From an uncultured Gemmatimonadaceae bacterium (GTDB lineage: Bacteria; Gemmatimonadota; Gemmatimonadetes; Gemmatimonadales; Gemmatimonadaceae): DNA of 64,000 nucleotides. Location: assembly GCA_963761305.1 (NCBI GenBank), contig CAVXGK010000001.1, forward strand, positions 1,088,001 to 1,152,000, written 5' to 3'. The notes beneath the pieces are model-generated. The model was given only the letters and a program-made list of their open reading frames with translations, made no database searches and was not told the DNA's origin. This document shows positions 5,719 through 56,497 of this stretch, piece by piece. Numbering within the stretch: position 1 is the first letter of the stretch; the number at the start of each line of letters is the position of its first letter. The translations under genes were made by a program, and so were the position numbers.

Positions 5719-5849
5719 GGTATTCCTGTCGATCGACCACGGGCGCGCGACGATCGAGGCATGGAGGCAGTTGACCGATGCTGCCGCCTGAAGCGGCCCA
5801 CTAGAGCCCCAGCCCAGCAGCGATCGCTATCAGGGCAAAGGGGCCGCAA

Positions 5850-5883: not shown

Positions 5884-5956
5884 TTGCCCCTCCTGGGATC
5901 GAACCAGGACTCTCCTGATCCAGAGTCAGGCGTGTTGCCAGTTACACCAAGGGGCA
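5884..5956 (-). tRNA. tRNA-Gln (anticodon CTG), CCA not encoded
   Basis: TGCCCCTTGGTGTAACTGGCAACACGCCTGACTCTGGATCAGGAGAGTCCTGGTTCGATCCCAGGAGGGGCAA cloverleaf. Confidence 0.95.
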
Positions 5957-18218: not shown

Positions 18219-18485
18219 ATGATCACGACCGTGAGCGTCGACGGGATGACGTGCCAACACTGCGTGCGGGCTGTGTTTACCTCCCTCGCCGCCGTGCCGG
18301 GGATCCACCGCGCGGACGTGTCCATCGGGGCGGCGTCGGTCGAGCACGACGGCACCGTCACCGTGGAACAGCTCAGGGAGGCGATCGCCGTGGCGGGGTA
18401 CGCCGTGAGGGGGGGACGGCCAGCAGGCGGGCGCTGCCGATCGCGTGAGCGGCTGACGGCTGACGGCGACGGCGGCGCGCACTGA
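18219..18485 (+). CDS. Heavy-metal-associated (CopZ-like) chaperone; possible 3' frameshift in a G7 tract
   Basis: GMTCQHC motif and AGY loop. Confidence 0.85.
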   Translation: MITTVSVDGMTCQHCVRAVFTSLAAVPGIHRADVSIGAASVEHDGTVTVEQLREAIAVAGYAVRGGRPAGGRCRSRERLTADGDGGAH

Positions 18486-18690
18486 TAGTGATCGCTGCCG
18501 GGTTGAGACTCCAGGCGGCAGCAACAGCGACAGCAATCAGAAACGGCGAACGCGCCCTGATGGCGATCGGGGTTTGGGCGAGACTCCGGGCGGCAGCTTC
18601 AGCGACAGCAGCAGGAAACGGCGAGCGCGGACTGATGGCGATCGCTTTCTGGTGAGACTCCAGGCGGTAGCGTCGGCGACAGGGTCAGGA
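18466..18690 (+). repeat. Three tandem copies of a 75-bp unit (left array)
   Basis: CTGAT at 18482/18557/18632; GAGACTCC at 18505/18580/18654. Confidence 0.9.
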
Positions 18691-19068
18691 ATTGCGGTCG
18701 GAGTCGATGCGGGTCATGTAGCCGTGGAGTAAGCGGCCGACCTCGTCGCCATCGCGTAGAAGGGCGAGCACGGTCTCGGTCTTGAGCTTACCGCGCCGGC
18801 CGAGAATCTCGATCTGCGTTGCCGCCTCCCAGAGCGATCCGCGGGAGTGGCGCAGAAAGACGAGTTGCTCGGACGCCGGCCTGCGGTGGCCTTCCGCGAT
18901 GTTTGACGGCACTGACACCGCGCATCGCCGAAGCTGGGAGACGATTCCGGCGCCCGCGCGCGCCGACAGCGAATCGCACGCGTCGAGCACGTGAACCGCA
19001 AAGTCCATGGCTCGTTGCCACACGATCAACGAGCGATATCCGCGCCCATCAAACTCGCCGAGGTCCAT
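18685..19068 (-). CDS. Four-helix-bundle protein (23S rRNA intervening-sequence protein / Avd-like family)
   Basis: YRSLIVWQRAMDF, SQLRRCAVSVPSNIAEG, FLRHSRGSLWE. Confidence 0.92.
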   Translation of the reverse strand: MDLGEFDGRGYRSLIVWQRAMDFAVHVLDACDSLSARAGAGIVSQLRRCAVSVPSNIAEGHRRPASEQLVFLRHSRGSLWEAATQIEILGRRGKLKTETVLALLRDGDEVGRLLHGYMTRIDSDRNS

Positions 19069-19132
19069 GGCCCGAGGCTAACGCGGCGCGCGGCCGCCTG
19101 CGCAACCATTTCCTTGCAGGCGGTAGGATTTT

Positions 19133-19290
19133 GTCGCCGTCTCCCTGATTGCTGTCGCTGCTGCTGCCGCCCCGAGTCTCGCCCCGCGGTGATCACTATC
19201 AGCCCACGCTCGCCGTGCACTGATTGCTGTCGCTTACGCTGACGCCTAGAGTCTCAGCCCCAAAGCGATCCCAATCAGTGCGCGCCCCGC
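19133..19290 (-). repeat. Two tandem copies of the same 75-bp unit, inverted (right array)
   Basis: CTGATTGCTGTCGCT at 19145/19220; GAGTCTC at 19174/19249; 19145-19160 is the perfect reverse complement of 18525-18540. Confidence 0.9.
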
Positions 19291-19431
19291 GCCGGTGCGT
19301 CAGTGCGGACCCCACGCCGTTACCAAACGGTGATCCTCGAGCGAATCCCTCTCGGGAGGGTTGTCCCACCGCATCAACATCATCTATGTTGCCCGCGCCG
19401 ACCCGGTGAGGACCTACAGCGGAGAGTGGCC

Positions 19432-20874
19432 ATGACGCCACCGCAGAGAAGCCCGGAGGAGCGCCCGGTCGCGGCGCTCCTCGCGCCCGACATCATGGCG
19501 ATGCTCGCCGAGTCGCCCAGCGATATCGCCGCGGAGACCGAGGAGATTCACCCCGCCGACCTCGCGGACGTCGCCGACGCGCTCGATCGCGACCAGCTGC
19601 AGGCGTTCCTCGCTGCACTCGGCGGCGCGCGCGCCGCCGACGTGCTCGAGTACATGGACGAGGAGGCGAGGACCGAATTCCTCGAGGGCATCACGCCGCG
19701 ACAGGCCGCCGAGCTCGTCACGCAGATGAAGCCCGACGACCGCGCCGACGCGCTCGAGGAGATCAACGAAGAGCACGCCGAGGAAATCCTCTCGGAGATT
19801 CCGAGGGAAGCGCGGCGGGAAACGGAGCAGCTCCTCTCGTACGAGGCGGACAGCGCCGGCGGCTTGATGACCACCGAGTTCGTCTCGGTGTCGGCCGAGA
19901 TGACGGTGGAGATGGCGCTCGACCTCGTGCGCGCCGTCGCGCGATCCGGCAGAAAGGAGGCGGTCTACGCGATCTACACGACCGACGACAAGGGACGCCT
20001 CGTCGGTGTGATCTCGCTGCGCGAGCTGCTCGCCGCGCCAACCGGGGCGAAGATCGGCGACATAGCGTGGACGGAGGTGCAGAGCGTGCGGTCGGGCTCC
20101 GACCGCGAAGAGGTCGCGACGATGATTGCGAACTACGACCTCGTCGCCGTCCCCGTCGTGAGCGAGTCGGGCCACATGCTCGGCGTGATCACCGTCGACG
20201 ACGTGATCGACGCGATCCAGGAAGAGCAGACCGAAGACGTGCAGAAGTTCGGCGGTTTGGAGGCGCTCGACGAGCCGTACATGCAGATCGGGCTGTTCGC
20301 GATGATCAAGAAGCGCGCGGGTTGGCTCAGCGTCCTGCTCATCAGCGAGATGCTGACGACGACCGCGATGCAGCACTTCGACATCGAGCTGCAGAAAGTC
20401 GCGATGCTCGCGCTGTTCGTGCCGCTCGTCATGAGCTCAGGAGGCAACTCGGGGTCGCAGGCGACGTCGCTCGTCACGCGCGCGATGGCGCTGCGCGAGA
20501 TCGAGCTCAGAGACTGGTGGCGGGTCGCCTTCCGCGAACTGCCCGCGGGACTCAGCCTCGGCGCGATCCTCGGCGTGATTGGCGTCATCCGCATCTCGTT
20601 GTGGCAGTACCTGAGGACGAGCTATCCCTCATTCCCCGTCGGCTACAACTACGGACCGCATTGGCCGCTCATCGCGACGACGGTCGGTCTGTCGCTCATC
20701 GGCATCGTGACGTTCGGTTCGCTCGCCGGCTCGATGCTGCCGTTCGTTCTGCGACGCCTCGGGTTCGACCCCGCCAGCGCGTCGGCGCCATTCGTCGCGA
20801 CGCTCGTCGACGTCACGGGGCTCAGCATCTACTTCATGGTGGCGCTGATCGTCCTGCACGGGACGCTCTTGTAG
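19432..20874 (+). CDS. mgtE: Magnesium transporter MgtE
   Basis: HPADLAD, SAGGLMTTEF, CBS pair, GGNSGSQA, DPASASAPFVATLVDV. Confidence 0.95.
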   Translation: MTPPQRSPEERPVAALLAPDIMAMLAESPSDIAAETEEIHPADLADVADALDRDQLQAFLAALGGARAADVLEYMDEEARTEFLEGITPRQAAELVTQMKPDDRADALEEINEEHAEEILSEIPREARRETEQLLSYEADSAGGLMTTEFVSVSAEMTVEMALDLVRAVARSGRKEAVYAIYTTDDKGRLVGVISLRELLAAPTGAKIGDIAWTEVQSVRSGSDREEVATMIANYDLVAVPVVSESGHMLGVITVDDVIDAIQEEQTEDVQKFGGLEALDEPYMQIGLFAMIKKRAGWLSVLLISEMLTTTAMQHFDIELQKVAMLALFVPLVMSSGGNSGSQATSLVTRAMALREIELRDWWRVAFRELPAGLSLGAILGVIGVIRISLWQYLRTSYPSFPVGYNYGPHWPLIATTVGLSLIGIVTFGSLAGSMLPFVLRRLGFDPASASAPFVATLVDVTGLSIYFMVALIVLHGTLL

Positions 20875-21596: not shown

Positions 21597-21764
21597 GGTG
21601 GACAGGTGGACAGGTGGACGGGTGGACAGGTGGACAGGTGGACAGGCACGGGAGATGTCCACCTGTTTGTTTTCGAGCTATCGGCTGTCAGCTATCGGCT
21701 GTCAGCTGTCATTAGCCGTCCACCCGTCCACCCGTCCACCCGTCCACCCGTCCACCCGTCCACC
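21597..21764. repeat. Hairpin of (GGTGGACR)x6 and (CGTCCACC)x6 enclosing (GCTRTCR)x5
   Basis: Octamers at 21597-21644 and 21717-21764; heptamers at 21677-21711. Confidence 0.95.
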
Positions 21765-21768
21765 CCAT

Positions 21769-22800: not shown

Positions 22801-22910
22801 CGTCTCAGCCAGTTGGGATGGTGACCACTCCAACCCGATGTCGCCCGAAATCCGTCACTCGGTTGCCGGGATCTCCCGGAGAACAGCGCGATCGCGGACT
22901 CTCGCGAACG

Positions 22911-23213
22911 CTCGAGTCGGTATACGCCGCCGCGATGGCCGAGGAGCTGACCGGTCGAGGCCACCACGTCGAGCGCGAGGTGTTCGTCATTGTGTACTAC
23001 AAGGAGAAGCCCATCGGCCGACAACGCGTGGACATAGTCGTCGACAAGACCGTCGTCCTCGAAATCAAAGCCACCGAGGTTCTATCCCGTTTTTCGTTCC
23101 GGCAAATGCTCAGCTACCTCACGGTCACGCGGCTTCCGATCGGACTGATTCTGCACTTTGGCCCACGGGCGCGTTTCTTTCGCATGGTCTCGTCGAGACG
23201 GCGCCCGAGTTGA
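22911..23213 (+). pseudogene. GxxExxY protein, N-terminally truncated
   Basis: LESVY, QRVDIVVD...VVLEIKA, QMLSYL, GLILHFG; similarity to the 32057 paralogue starts only at LESVY. Confidence 0.8.
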
Positions 23214-28101: not shown

Positions 28102-28139
28102 AGTGGACCGGTAGACCGGTGGACCGGTGGACGGTTGAC
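28102..28139. repeat. GGTGGAC octamer run (4-5 degenerate copies)
   Basis: AGTGGACC GGTAGACC GGTGGACC GGTGGACG GTTGAC, abutting the permease stop codon. Confidence 0.75.
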
Positions 28140-32056: not shown

Positions 32057-32443
32057 GTGGCGAGCAAACGACTTCCCTCCGGGCACGAGCTGACGCACTC
32101 GATCATCGGCGGCTTTTACGAGGTCTATAACCACCTTGGCTACGGGCTGCTCGAGTCGGTCTACCTCGCGGCAATCCGTCGAGAGCTCGAATCGCGCGGT
32201 CTCTTCGTCGAGCGTGAGGTCTGGATCAACGTGTTCTAGGGAGAAACGATCGCGAAGCAGCGGATGGATGTGATCGTCGACCATAGCGTCGTCGTCGAGA
32301 TCAAAGCCACAGAAAGGGTTCCACAGTTCGCGCGTCGCCAACTGCTGAACTACTTGCGCGCGACTCGCCTCGAGCTGGGCCTGCTCCTGCATTTTGGTCC
32401 CGAGCCCAGAGTCTACCGACTCATCGATACCAAGAAAACTTGA
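32057..32443 (+). pseudogene. GxxExxY protein (PD-(D/E)XK-like) with in-frame TAG at 32237-32239
   Basis: LGYGLLESVY; after the TAG the same frame continues GETIAKQRMDVIVDHSVVVEIKA...QLLNYL...GLLLHFGP to TGA at 32441-32443. Confidence 0.9.
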
Positions 32444-54645: not shown

Positions 54646-56497
54646 CGATTTCGCGTTCAAGATCGGAACGGTCAACGGGACGGGGTCGGCCAGCGCGAAC
54701 GGCCTGCTCATGCAGGCGATCTTTCGCATGGGCATTCCGGTCACCGGCAAGAACGTGTTCCCCTCGAACATCCAGGGTCTGCCGACGTGGTACGAGATCC
54801 GGGTCAGCAAGGACGGCTACACGGCGCGTCCCGAGCACGTCGACCTCGTCGTCGCGCTCAACCCGGAGACCTACGCCAGGGATGTCGCCGCGGTGCGCGA
54901 GGGCGGCTACCTGCTGTACGACTCGTCATGGCCGCTCGACGACAAGTTGATTCGCGAAGGCATCACGATCCTCGGCATTCCGTTCGGCAAATTGTGCGTC
55001 GAGAACTTCGAGGGCGACCGCAATCGCACGCTGCTGCGCAACATCGTGTACGTCGGCGCGTTGGCGGCGCTGCTCGAGTTCGACATGGACGTGGTGAACG
55101 AGATGCTGCGCGAGAAGTTCGCCAAGAAGCGCGCGCTCCTCGACGCCAACTTCCGTGCGATCCGGCTCGGCTTCGACTACGCCAAGGCCAACTACGACTG
55201 TCCGCTGCCATTTCACCTCGAGCGAATGGGCGGCGACAAGACGAAAGACAGCATCCTGATCGACGGCAACGCCGCCGGCGCACTCGGCGCGGTGTTCGCC
55301 GGCGCCACGGTCGGCGCGTGGTACCCGATCACGCCCTCGACGTCGCTGATGGAAGCGTTCAAGGAATACTGCGAACGTTTCCGCGTCGACCCGACGACGG
55401 GCGAGCGCAAGTACGCGCTGATTCAAGCTGAAGACGAACTCGCGGCCGCCGGCATGGTGATCGGCGCGGGATGGGCCGGCGCACGCGCGTTCACATCGAC
55501 GGCCGGCCCGGGCATCTCGCTGATGAGCGAGTTCATCGGACTTGCGTACTACACCGAAATCCCCGGCGTCTTCTTCGACATTCAGCGCACCGGCCCGTCG
55601 ACCGGCATGCCGACGCGCACGCAGCAAGGCGACCTGCTCTCGATCGCGTATCTGTCGCATGGCGACACGAAGCACATCGCGCTCTTTCCGGCGAATCCGG
55701 GCGAGTGCTTCACGCTCGCCGTCGAAGCATTCGATCTGGCCGAGCGTTTCCAGACGCCGGTGTTCGTGGTGTCGGATCTGGACATCGGCATGAACGACTG
55801 GATGTGCCCGCGTTTCACCTGGGACGACAACTACCGTCCCGACCGAGGCAAGGTGCTCGGTCCCGCCGAACTCGAACGCGTCGAGAAATTTTCGCGTTAC
55901 CTCGACGTGGACGGCGACGGCATCGCGGCGAGAACGATCCCCGGTGCCTCACCGCGCGGCGGCTATTTCACGCGCGGCTCGGGGCACACGAAGTTCGGTA
56001 CCTACACCGAAGACGCGGCCGAATATCTGGAAGTCGTCGATCGGTTGGTGAAGAAGATGGAAACCGCCGCGAAGGCGGTGCCCGGTCCGGAGATCCGCTC
56101 CGCCGGCAAGACCACCGAGGTGGGGATCATCTCACTCGGCGGATGCCATGCGGCGGTAATGGAAGCAGTCGACAGATTGAGTGGTGGACAGGTGGACGGG
56201 TGGACAGGTGGACCGCTGGCGGTCGACTACATGCGCATTCGCGCGTTTCCGTTTGGGCCTGGCGTGCGAGAGTTCATCGAAGCGCACCCGAGGTGCTACG
56301 TGGTCGAGCAGAATCGCGACGGGCAACTGCGTTCGCTGCTCGCGCTCGAGACCGGGATTGCGCGCGACCGAATGATCTCGGTGCTGGACTACGGCGGCCT
56401 TCCGCTCACCGCCGATCGCGTCGTCGCCGGCATCGTCGGCAAGAAGGCACAGCCAGTCGGACCCGAACCGACGCGCCGCGAAGCCGCGCGCGTCTGA
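54635..56497 (+). CDS. korA: 2-oxoacid:ferredoxin oxidoreductase alpha subunit
   Basis: FPSNIQGLPT, WYPITPSTS, QAEDELAA, QRTGPSTGMPTRTQQGD, VVEQNRDGQL. Confidence 0.92.
   Translation: MPINDFAFKIGTVNGTGSASANGLLMQAIFRMGIPVTGKNVFPSNIQGLPTWYEIRVSKDGYTARPEHVDLVVALNPETYARDVAAVREGGYLLYDSSWPLDDKLIREGITILGIPFGKLCVENFEGDRNRTLLRNIVYVGALAALLEFDMDVVNEMLREKFAKKRALLDANFRAIRLGFDYAKANYDCPLPFHLERMGGDKTKDSILIDGNAAGALGAVFAGATVGAWYPITPSTSLMEAFKEYCERFRVDPTTGERKYALIQAEDELAAAGMVIGAGWAGARAFTSTAGPGISLMSEFIGLAYYTEIPGVFFDIQRTGPSTGMPTRTQQGDLLSIAYLSHGDTKHIALFPANPGECFTLAVEAFDLAERFQTPVFVVSDLDIGMNDWMCPRFTWDDNYRPDRGKVLGPAELERVEKFSRYLDVDGDGIAARTIPGASPRGGYFTRGSGHTKFGTYTEDAAEYLEVVDRLVKKMETAAKAVPGPEIRSAGKTTEVGIISLGGCHAAVMEAVDRLSGGQVDGWTGGPLAVDYMRIRAFPFGPGVREFIEAHPRCYVVEQNRDGQLRSLLALETGIARDRMISVLDYGGLPLTADRVVAGIVGKKAQPVGPEPTRREAARV
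56183..56214 (+). repeat. GGTGGACN x4 inside korA
   Basis: GGTGGACA GGTGGACG GGTGGACA GGTGGACC, encoding GGQVDGWTGGP. Confidence 0.9.

Follow-up and report, generated by a model that had tools for sequence, protein, structure and literature searches.

A gene encoding a small four-helix-bundle (FHB) protein lies, caged between inverted arrays of a 75-bp repeat, in the 64,000-nt stretch of DNA analysed here (the window, to which all unprefixed coordinates refer). This arrangement raises the question of what the gene and its repeats constitute. The original prediction, made from this sequence alone, proposed an undescribed and self-contained gene-plus-repeat element, either mobile or RNA-based. 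In what follows, G000 designates the genome of this DNA, G001, G002 and so forth designate those of its relatives, and a shell is a gene-less inverted pair of units.

Organization of the locus

The five occurrences of CTGAT that mark the units (18482, 18557, 18632, 19145 and 19220) fall exactly where the original prediction had placed them, with three units to the left of the gene and two, 75 bp apart and inverted with respect to the left array, to its right. The left array (18469-18691) was identified by TRF with a period of 75, 3.0 copies, 76% matches and a score of 251, and the best arm pair spans 67 nt with 84% complementarity. A degenerate sixth unit (19069-19146), which holds the predicted promoter of the FHB gene, corrects this layout to 3+3 units (Table 1). 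Unit L1 displays the order of elements seen in the unit at large: a CTGAT..GATC head, a variable linker, an ACTC block and successive 6/7-mers centred on CAG. As anticipated, the third left unit supplies the stop codon of the gene, the TGA at 18685-18687 being its terminal TCA on the opposite strand. The predicted promoter encompasses an upstream box (19112-19103) and a -10 hexamer (19080-19075) located six bases before the ATG. The lead-in repeat forms the outer left edge of the insert and represents a 21-nt insertion relative to four relatives.

The cassette is located between copZ and mgtE and hence, as originally proposed, outside rRNA; Rfam searches returned only two tRNAs within the window and no match over the cassette. 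The base composition of the host is 66% GC. Since soil contigs from three runs carry one extra base after 18611 and another near 18408-18412, small indel errors in this assembly are likely; copZ is intact in the relatives. A 1531-nt soil contig from run X2, which may be the source sample of this DNA, covers copZ, the cassette and the mgtE leader with 20 differences, and one contig from run X4, a separate study, shows a fourth left unit at a depth of 3.5. Positions 19291-19349 were considered as a remnant of an older shell arm (p 0.13), and this is not claimed.

Table 1. Features of the FHB cassette and its surroundings (positions in the window).
Feature	Position	Strand	Evidence or remark
Solo unit copy	5773..5839 (C1:1093839-1093773)	-	E 1.1e-8; 45 bp downstream of tRNA gene 5884-5956
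Host gene, copZ-like HMA protein	18219..18448	+	one-base frameshift near 18408 in this assembly
Lead-in repeat, 7-bp	18451..18472	+	between copZ stop and unit L1; TRF period 7, 3.6 copies
Unit L1, outer left arm	18473..18542	+	profile match E 9e-15
Unit L2	18548..18617	+	TRF and profile match; soil contigs with one extra base after 18611
Unit L3	18622..18691	+	terminal TCA is the stop codon of the FHB gene on the opposite strand
FHB gene, TIGR02436/PF05635, 127 aa, Xcc0516/Avd fold	18685..19068	-	profiles and predicted structure
Degenerate sixth unit, predicted leaderless promoter	19069..19146	-	collinear match to the upstream arm in G017
Unit R1, inner right arm	19144..19211	-	arm comparison and profile match
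Unit R2, outer right arm	19219..19288	-	arm comparison and profile match
Host gene mgtE	19432..20874	+	TIGR00400

The FHB protein and its family

In agreement with the family proposed at the outset, the FHB protein scores above the cut-offs of TIGR02436 (87.9 bits, cut-off 24) and PF05635 (86.4 bits, cut-off 33.8, E 1.9e-24); it presents no match to PF22296 and no known catalytic domain. Its AlphaFold model (pLDDT 93) consists of four long helices and matches the structure of Xcc0516 (2GSC) with a TM of 0.85, an rmsd of 1.2 A and 34% identity. Further structural matches were obtained with BT_0352 (2RLD, TM 0.77) and with Avd from diversity-generating retroelements (DGRs; 8UB7, TM 0.76; 4DWL, TM 0.71), the Avd structures being 14-16% identical to the FHB protein (4DWL 16%). 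A resemblance between PF05635 and Avd is also noted in the accessible text of PMC10053308. Avd is described, in the available portions of 10.1101/2023.10.23.563531 and PMC10053308, as a pentamer, barrel-shaped and positively charged, with binding to a specific RNA element, and Xcc0516 as a homopentameric ring in those of PMC4990558. By analogy with both proteins, the FHB protein would form a pentameric ring. The papers that were searched give neither a function nor a DNA context for Xcc0516 and BT_0352.

An estimated 21,000 or so stretches in the genome collection correspond to TIGR02436. Within this family, the FHB clade comprises about 26 database proteins at 60-91% identity and constitutes a distinct group, with support of 100/100 among the 24 rows of the tree; one homologue at 65% identity carries the NCBI label Gemmatimonadaceae, so that the host likely belongs to Gemmatimonadota. 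Among 400 family genomes searched, only G005 and G017 exceed 200 bits. When the collection was scanned twice with the alignment of this clade, all genes obtained were distant FHB genes (30-50%), with the unit found in none, and a pattern search of viral contigs yielded 0 matches.

The unit defines a genome-wide repeat family

An iterated profile of the unit identified 52 copies in G000 and 0 in the reversed genome, indicating that the array is not a product of chance. These copies map to 34 sites: the cassette, 12 gene-less head-to-head pairs (shells) and 21 single hits, some of them with a weak partner arm, so that the solo copies envisaged by the original prediction do exist. Apart from this FHB gene, no gene of G000 was seen to be flanked by the unit. 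The unit linker varies in sequence and has a near-fixed length (offset 26-27 in 19 of 25 measurable copies). Motif columns remain about 70-74% identical, as opposed to values down to 44% in linkers. The suggested selection on blocks of the unit was supported. The 75-bp period reflects local triplication of one compound arm, which relatives carry once per side. The five cassette units show a mutual identity of 0.756, versus 0.640 to the remaining units, as expected under local duplication. In G002 the short-repeat run consists simply of a heptamer array with about 14 copies, which ties the unit to the ordinary arms of the FHB family.

On our own rough gene calls (4214 genes), which also underlie the promoter ranks given below, a gene 3' end is found no more than 60 bp from 22 of the 33 non-cassette sites, and convergent gaps contain 12 of these 33 sites (expected 12%, p 0.0004). 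A promoter function for the unit was rejected, given that 0/52 units reach a score of 12 with the FHB promoter matrix (maximum 11.4), as was a reading of the ACTC block as an outward -10 box, for which conservation falls at the wrong positions. Solo units also adjoin three of four pattern-matched copies of an AT-rich element (window 5773-5839, C2:402336 and C2:3386161).

Folding and co-evolution of the arms

The original prediction held that the flanks could pair into a stem looping out the gene, and this was borne out as far as folding is concerned: the cassette region is predicted to fold as a long stem (-477 kcal/mol, z -10.2, 0/20 shuffles as good), because it contains inverted copies of one motif. 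Selection for pairing was absent in the 11 arm pairs analysed, one pair with a truncated arm being left out. Arm identity was 0.605 within pairs and 0.613 between pairs (p 0.66), revealing no arm-arm co-evolution, and real and chimeric pairs folded equally well (-75.4 vs -75.0 kcal/mol). For the unit itself, RNAalifold gave a consensus with 0 pairs from 49 copies. Units taken singly give folds comparable to those of shuffles (mean z -0.2; 3/50 below -2), and the unit is not palindromic.

These results bear on the RNA-based reading of the locus, under which the arms would pair in the transcript, RNase III would excise the looped ORF as in 23S rRNA intervening sequences (IVSs) and an Avd-like protein would bind unit RNA and aid re-insertion by a reverse transcriptase (RT). 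In favour of this reading are the long stem, which makes such pairing possible, the fold match to Avd (TM 0.71 to 4DWL), the presence of one RT gene in G000 and the Coxiella IVS, for which the accessible text of PMC4990558 reports terminal inverted repeats, heptamers and RNase III excision. Yet the unit lacks a consensus structure, its arms show no sign of co-evolution, and the predicted leaderless mRNA would start within the right arm array, past the upstream arms. Moreover, the gene is antisense to the host genes at copZ-mgtE and sense at the alternative location described below (rng-rplU), and the one RT gene of G000 (RVT_1 match at C1:821086) lies about 285 kb from the cassette. No RT or transposase is found beside the gene, as had been stated, and no Y1 transposase (PF01797) was detected in G000 (93% complete). 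An RNA-based element therefore appears very improbable.

Occupied and empty sites in relatives

The unit model matched 8 of 60 relatives, all of the same genus, with at least 8-30 matches in seven of them and at least 2 weak matches in the other. Cognate FHB genes or fragments were present in five of the seven many-copy relatives. Upstream of mgtE, an FHB gene was found in 0/29 relatives, with copZ adjacent in 8. The copZ-mgtE junction holds a gene-less pair in G024, G005, G017 and G015, and also in G019, in line with the empty site postulated for this locus; in G004, G001, G011 and G036 it carries no unit. The cognate FHB gene lies between rng and rplU, with one arm per side, in G017 and G005 (74-76% aa identity), and broken versions with the same arms occupy this site in G002 (67%, frameshifted) and G024 (69% nt, frameshifted). 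Conversely, rng-rplU in G000 contains an empty shell. Occupancy is hence reciprocal, with copZ-mgtE filled and rng-rplU empty in G000 and the opposite in G005, G017 and, with a broken gene, G024, which shows directly that this is a cassette armed with repeats, with cognate shells and an occupancy that changes.

At rng-rplU, the arm upstream of the gene doubles as its promoter in G017 and G005. The sixth unit of G000 aligns end to end with the G017 upstream arm (0/2000 shuffles as good) and is thus homologous to the upstream arm of the rng site, for which reason the FHB gene and its promoter arm most likely moved jointly into a pre-existing shell. The alternative of two old copies, with ancestral presence at both sites and differential loss, is retained because the G000 FHB protein and its closest homologues share just 74-76% identity, as compared to 89-90% for mgtE, and because the promoter arm also resembles the copZ-mgtE shell arm (G024, p 0.006; G017, p 0.15).

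Among 27 genus relatives (two partial loci being left out), rng-rplU contains an FHB gene or fragment in 14, an empty 83-100-bp spacer in 7 and other inserts in 6, and its FHB genes carry various heptamers; this junction is an insertion hotspot. G019 is the sister of G005/G017 (99/95) in the host tree, in which 11 forks are open and one long row is badly placed; its FHB protein, by contrast, groups with that of G015, outside the cognate clade. FHB types have evidently been exchanged at rng-rplU against the host tree, as this comparison of trees shows. G015 (98% complete) and G019 present 25-28 unit matches and no detected cognate FHB gene, indicating that shells persist without it. The cognate gene is fragmentary or frameshifted in G002, G024 and G022, in some cases perhaps through assembly errors.

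Several additional arrangements were observed at this junction. In G022 (L361, C11:392400-393800), one FHB type is followed by the cognate type, unrelated DNA and a return, a mixture that is possibly an assembly artefact or a mixed population (73% complete assembly). Other gene-less inverted repeats of 298-745 bp, with different units, occupy the site in L442 (G028), L441 (G023), L444 (G016) and L449 (G030). Four soil runs gave no coverage of the shell at rng-rplU, and only a loose end after the rng stop in X4 hints at other content.

Site inheritance and concerted motif change

Mappable sites in common with G000 amount to 13/16 in G005, 9/12 in G019, 8/15 in G015 and 3/14 in G002. Most shells are thus inherited in place, as illustrated by G005, and new insertion appears to be slow. 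The motif CATCAG is present in 35 of the 52 G000 units, and in 21 of 26 at sites common with relatives, versus 5/112 in the relatives themselves (G005 0/30, G019 2/26, G015 1/26 and G002 2/30). The unit models were built mostly from G000 copies, a bias that runs against this contrast. At common sites the motif hence tracks the genome and not the site, and the linkers retain site ancestry (0.44 vs 0.36 over 35 pairs, a few of them probably mis-paired). Selection to follow a drifted protein specificity, or short-patch conversion, would explain this concerted change. Restriction or methylation avoidance was discarded as its cause, since the alternative words are not depleted genome-wide.

Inverted arms are widespread at FHB loci

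The element, originally regarded as self-contained, is neither that nor unique. A search for FHB genes in G000 returned 10 matches at 9 loci, and inverted tandem arms were found at 8 of these 9, with seven different units and periods of 13, 75, 8, 7, 32, 16, 16 and 7, the two 7-bp loci being near duplicates; one locus has no arms. In a survey of 160 distant FHB loci, of which 134 were kept after dropping one and a further 25 without flanks or usable hit, inverted flanks (score 36) were detected in 79/134, as opposed to 13/666 swapped pairs and to 7/134 in direct orientation. Hence inverted arms are common among homologous genes, just as the unit occurs elsewhere in the genome and empty sites exist in relatives. 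Among small genes of G000, 6/489 present inverted flanks, three of these being FHB genes and one GxxExxY-like. The arm period is 7 in 61 of the 79 inverted loci and 21 or more in 3, which makes the 75-bp compound arm exceptional.

A shared heptamer was found in 89 of 133 loci, with its AG junction in gene orientation in 72 and on the other strand in 23. In the 61 single-junction loci, residues 61, 64, 113 and 115 associate with particular bases at particular heptamer positions: Q61 occurs with T in 31/32 (others 7/29), N115 with C in 24/28 (others 4/32) and Y/F64 with C in 14/16 (others 4/45). H61 occurs mostly with G at position 1 (12/19), as in the heptamer of this clade. Cross-controls were weaker (20/32 vs 8/29; 20/28 vs 17/32), and an independent-pair test of the residue-base link yielded 1-2 supported pairs, so that the association is not separable from shared descent.

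Promoter likeness to competence genes

A three-box promoter matrix was trained on 19 of 27 FHB leaders, all from other genomes. Among the 4214 genes of G000, this matrix ranked the FHB gene 3 and the gene encoding YifB, which we take to be ComM, 11; comEC, recJ and dprA ranked 171, 201 and 886, and comEA, which is outside the 4214 calls, obtained the best score seen (21.0). Mean scores were 11.6 for comEA (n 7) and 6.9 for comM (n 29), compared to 4.0 for the mgtE control (n 30) and 2.0 for background, and the -10 box of comEA lies 6-8 bases before the ATG in 7/7 extractable leaders. The matrix is weak, with shuffled leaders reaching 18.4 in 1500 draws and 23 of the 29 comM leaders scoring under 12. 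A link between the FHB promoter and competence is plausible on these sequence data, if not firm.

The same matrix ranked a Uma2 gene 2 and a GxxExxY gene 14 of 4214. Two Uma2 nuclease-fold genes of G000 (C2:3375995 and C2:3378991) display the FHB/comEA promoter pattern. GxxExxY proteins (PD-(D/E)XK) have six matches in G000; two of the genes are located in the window, at 22818-23213 and at about 32057-32401, the latter with an internal stop and an FHB-type promoter. The last third of YifB/ComM is duplicated downstream of the gene in G015 (C44), G019 (C20), G000 (C1:193921), G007 and G018, with three partial duplicates in G015 and two in G019; these are likely scars of comM-integrating islands.

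Proposed mechanism and alternatives

The reading that we favour tentatively, with a confidence somewhat short of even, is that of a repeat-armed DNA cassette whose gene likely moved from rng-rplU into the copZ-mgtE shell by means of a repeat-binding protein and host recombination in competence. The FHB protein would presumably bind its own repeat, its ring recognising the 6/7-mers of the arms by their AG junction on DNA, most probably on incoming single strands, and this binding would bias recombination toward gain or retention of the cassette. The gene could then move between shells through recombination by the host during periods of competence for DNA uptake. Shells would arise by deletion and act as landing pads, and selection or short-patch conversion would keep them matched to the current protein; unequal recombination would have tripled the whole 75-bp arm at the occupied site. 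The mechanism leaves out the arrival of shells at new, non-homologous sites, and assigns no partner to the conserved ACTC block and GATC head.

Alternatively, the arms might be cut or joined by an enzyme acting in trans, such as the promoter-sharing GxxExxY or Uma2 nuclease-fold proteins, with the FHB ring as adaptor or passenger in the manner of Avd for its RT. The conserved ACTC and GATC blocks outside the short-repeat run, the number of GxxExxY matches in G000, the promoter ranks of both gene types, the persistence of shells in G015 and G019 without a cognate FHB gene and the fold, which is that of an accessory subunit, are all compatible with such an enzyme. We nonetheless deem it rather unlikely, in view of the absence of a Y1 transposase from the G000 searches, of the unit surrounding only this FHB gene in that genome and of the fact that each FHB type is accompanied by its own repeat, an indication that it is the FHB protein that does the reading. 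Another possibility is that the units serve the host as regulatory elements of DNA or RNA (REP-like terminators, stabilisers or nucleoid sites) and are maintained by selection on the host, with the FHB protein as a domesticated binder or bystander and with old duplication and differential loss accounting for the occupancy pattern. The preference of the units for gene 3' ends and convergent gaps, the retention of many sites across species and the conservation of motif columns over linkers are in keeping with this view; it is at odds with the restriction of the unit to one genus subclade, with a rng-rplU junction that is empty in 7/27 relatives and holds unrelated arms in others, with the broken cognate genes of G002, G024 and G022, and with arms that show neither a U-tract nor selection for pairing, and we hence consider it unlikely.

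A wider version of the repeat-armed cassette is possible, if doubtful. In it, the cassette would belong to a kind of enzyme-less selfish DNA, in which competence-induced Avd-fold pentamers would recognise their short repeats through a residue-to-base code, have the cassette copied by natural transformation into a genome-wide set of cognate shells and keep these shells in concert, with the 23S IVS as one landing site and DGR Avd as a recruit.

Relationship to known systems

MITEs are non-autonomous shells with terminal inverted repeats, and homing-endonuclease cassettes occur as occupied and empty alleles at one site. The FHB cassette resembles them in its gene-less shells with inverted repeats and in its filled and empty alleles, and differs from them in a cargo without transposase or nuclease domain; no target-site duplication was seen, filled and empty sites being too diverged for their boundaries to be read.

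Likenesses to REPIN/RAYT, REPtron and TIRtron systems, as these are described in the accessible portions of PMC3116915 and PMC3733652, include a gene that is present once and is flanked by a repeat of its own, the scattering of this repeat outside genes as inverted doublets and singlets (here, 12 gene-less pairs among 34 sites), tandem arrays beside the gene and a lineage-restricted, largely vertical distribution. In contrast to what those portions report, the FHB protein does not belong to the Y1/HUH transposases, of which G000 (93% complete) yielded none, the units are not palindromic and show none of the compensatory arm changes that are common in REPIN arms (PMC3116915), and the cassette gene itself shifts between doublets. 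The cassette works like a REPtron with its REPINs, yet it falls outside that class, having neither a tyrosine transposase nor hairpin selection.

The 23S rRNA IVS of Coxiella and Leptospira (S23p), according to the available text of PMC4990558, likewise presents a PF05635 ORF between terminal inverted repeats and, in Coxiella, variable-number tandem heptamers before the ORF, together with a 28-bp stem, RNase III processing and a protein without an assigned function. Unlike the IVS, the FHB cassette is located outside rRNA, has its own predicted promoter and tandem 75-bp compound arms, is accompanied by genome-wide gene-less pairs, and carries a gene found at different protein-gene junctions. 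According to the available part of 10.1101/2024.02.27.582315, IVP ORFs are spread among rRNA insertion sites that also hold inserts without an ORF. The 23S IVS would appear to be one of the landing sites of such cassettes. With respect to DGR Avd, the four-helix fold is shared; in the cassette there is no adjacent RT, the neighbours are copZ and mgtE, and the likely ligand is a repeated DNA motif. The cassette hence shares its protein with rRNA IVSs and its fold with Avd, but the context of neither. In the literature searched, which comprised main texts and few subscription papers, no paper was found on FHB genes in inverted repeat arms outside rRNA or on gene-less shells.

The very large TIGR02436 family is an orphan, for which two structures and no function are available; this locus ties it to a defined, testable ligand. 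It also provides a natural experiment, in which the gene has been swapped with an empty shell and some 30 dispersed sites have shifted motif together. Should the protein read the repeat, one source of the short repeats found between genes in many phyla would be explained, rRNA intervening sequences and the emergence of Avd would be seen in a new light, and selfish DNA would prove able to spread enzyme-less through the use of competence. The protein would also represent a small, programmable ring for the binding of repeats.

Further inverted arrays in the genome

The window contains a second gene-less inverted array at 21597-21765, with six copies of an 8-bp unit per side around a short 14-bp repeat. 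The FHB gene at G000 C1:1510611 has arms of an 8-mer near-identical to this unit, and the array looks like a shell of another FHB family. Further short-repeat runs are present in the window at 28103-28132 and 56183-56213. Finally, a small cupin-like gene (L360, G000 C1:1727483-1727845) presents inverted flanks with a score of 108 and an FHB-type promoter of rank 9, and is perhaps another type of cargo.
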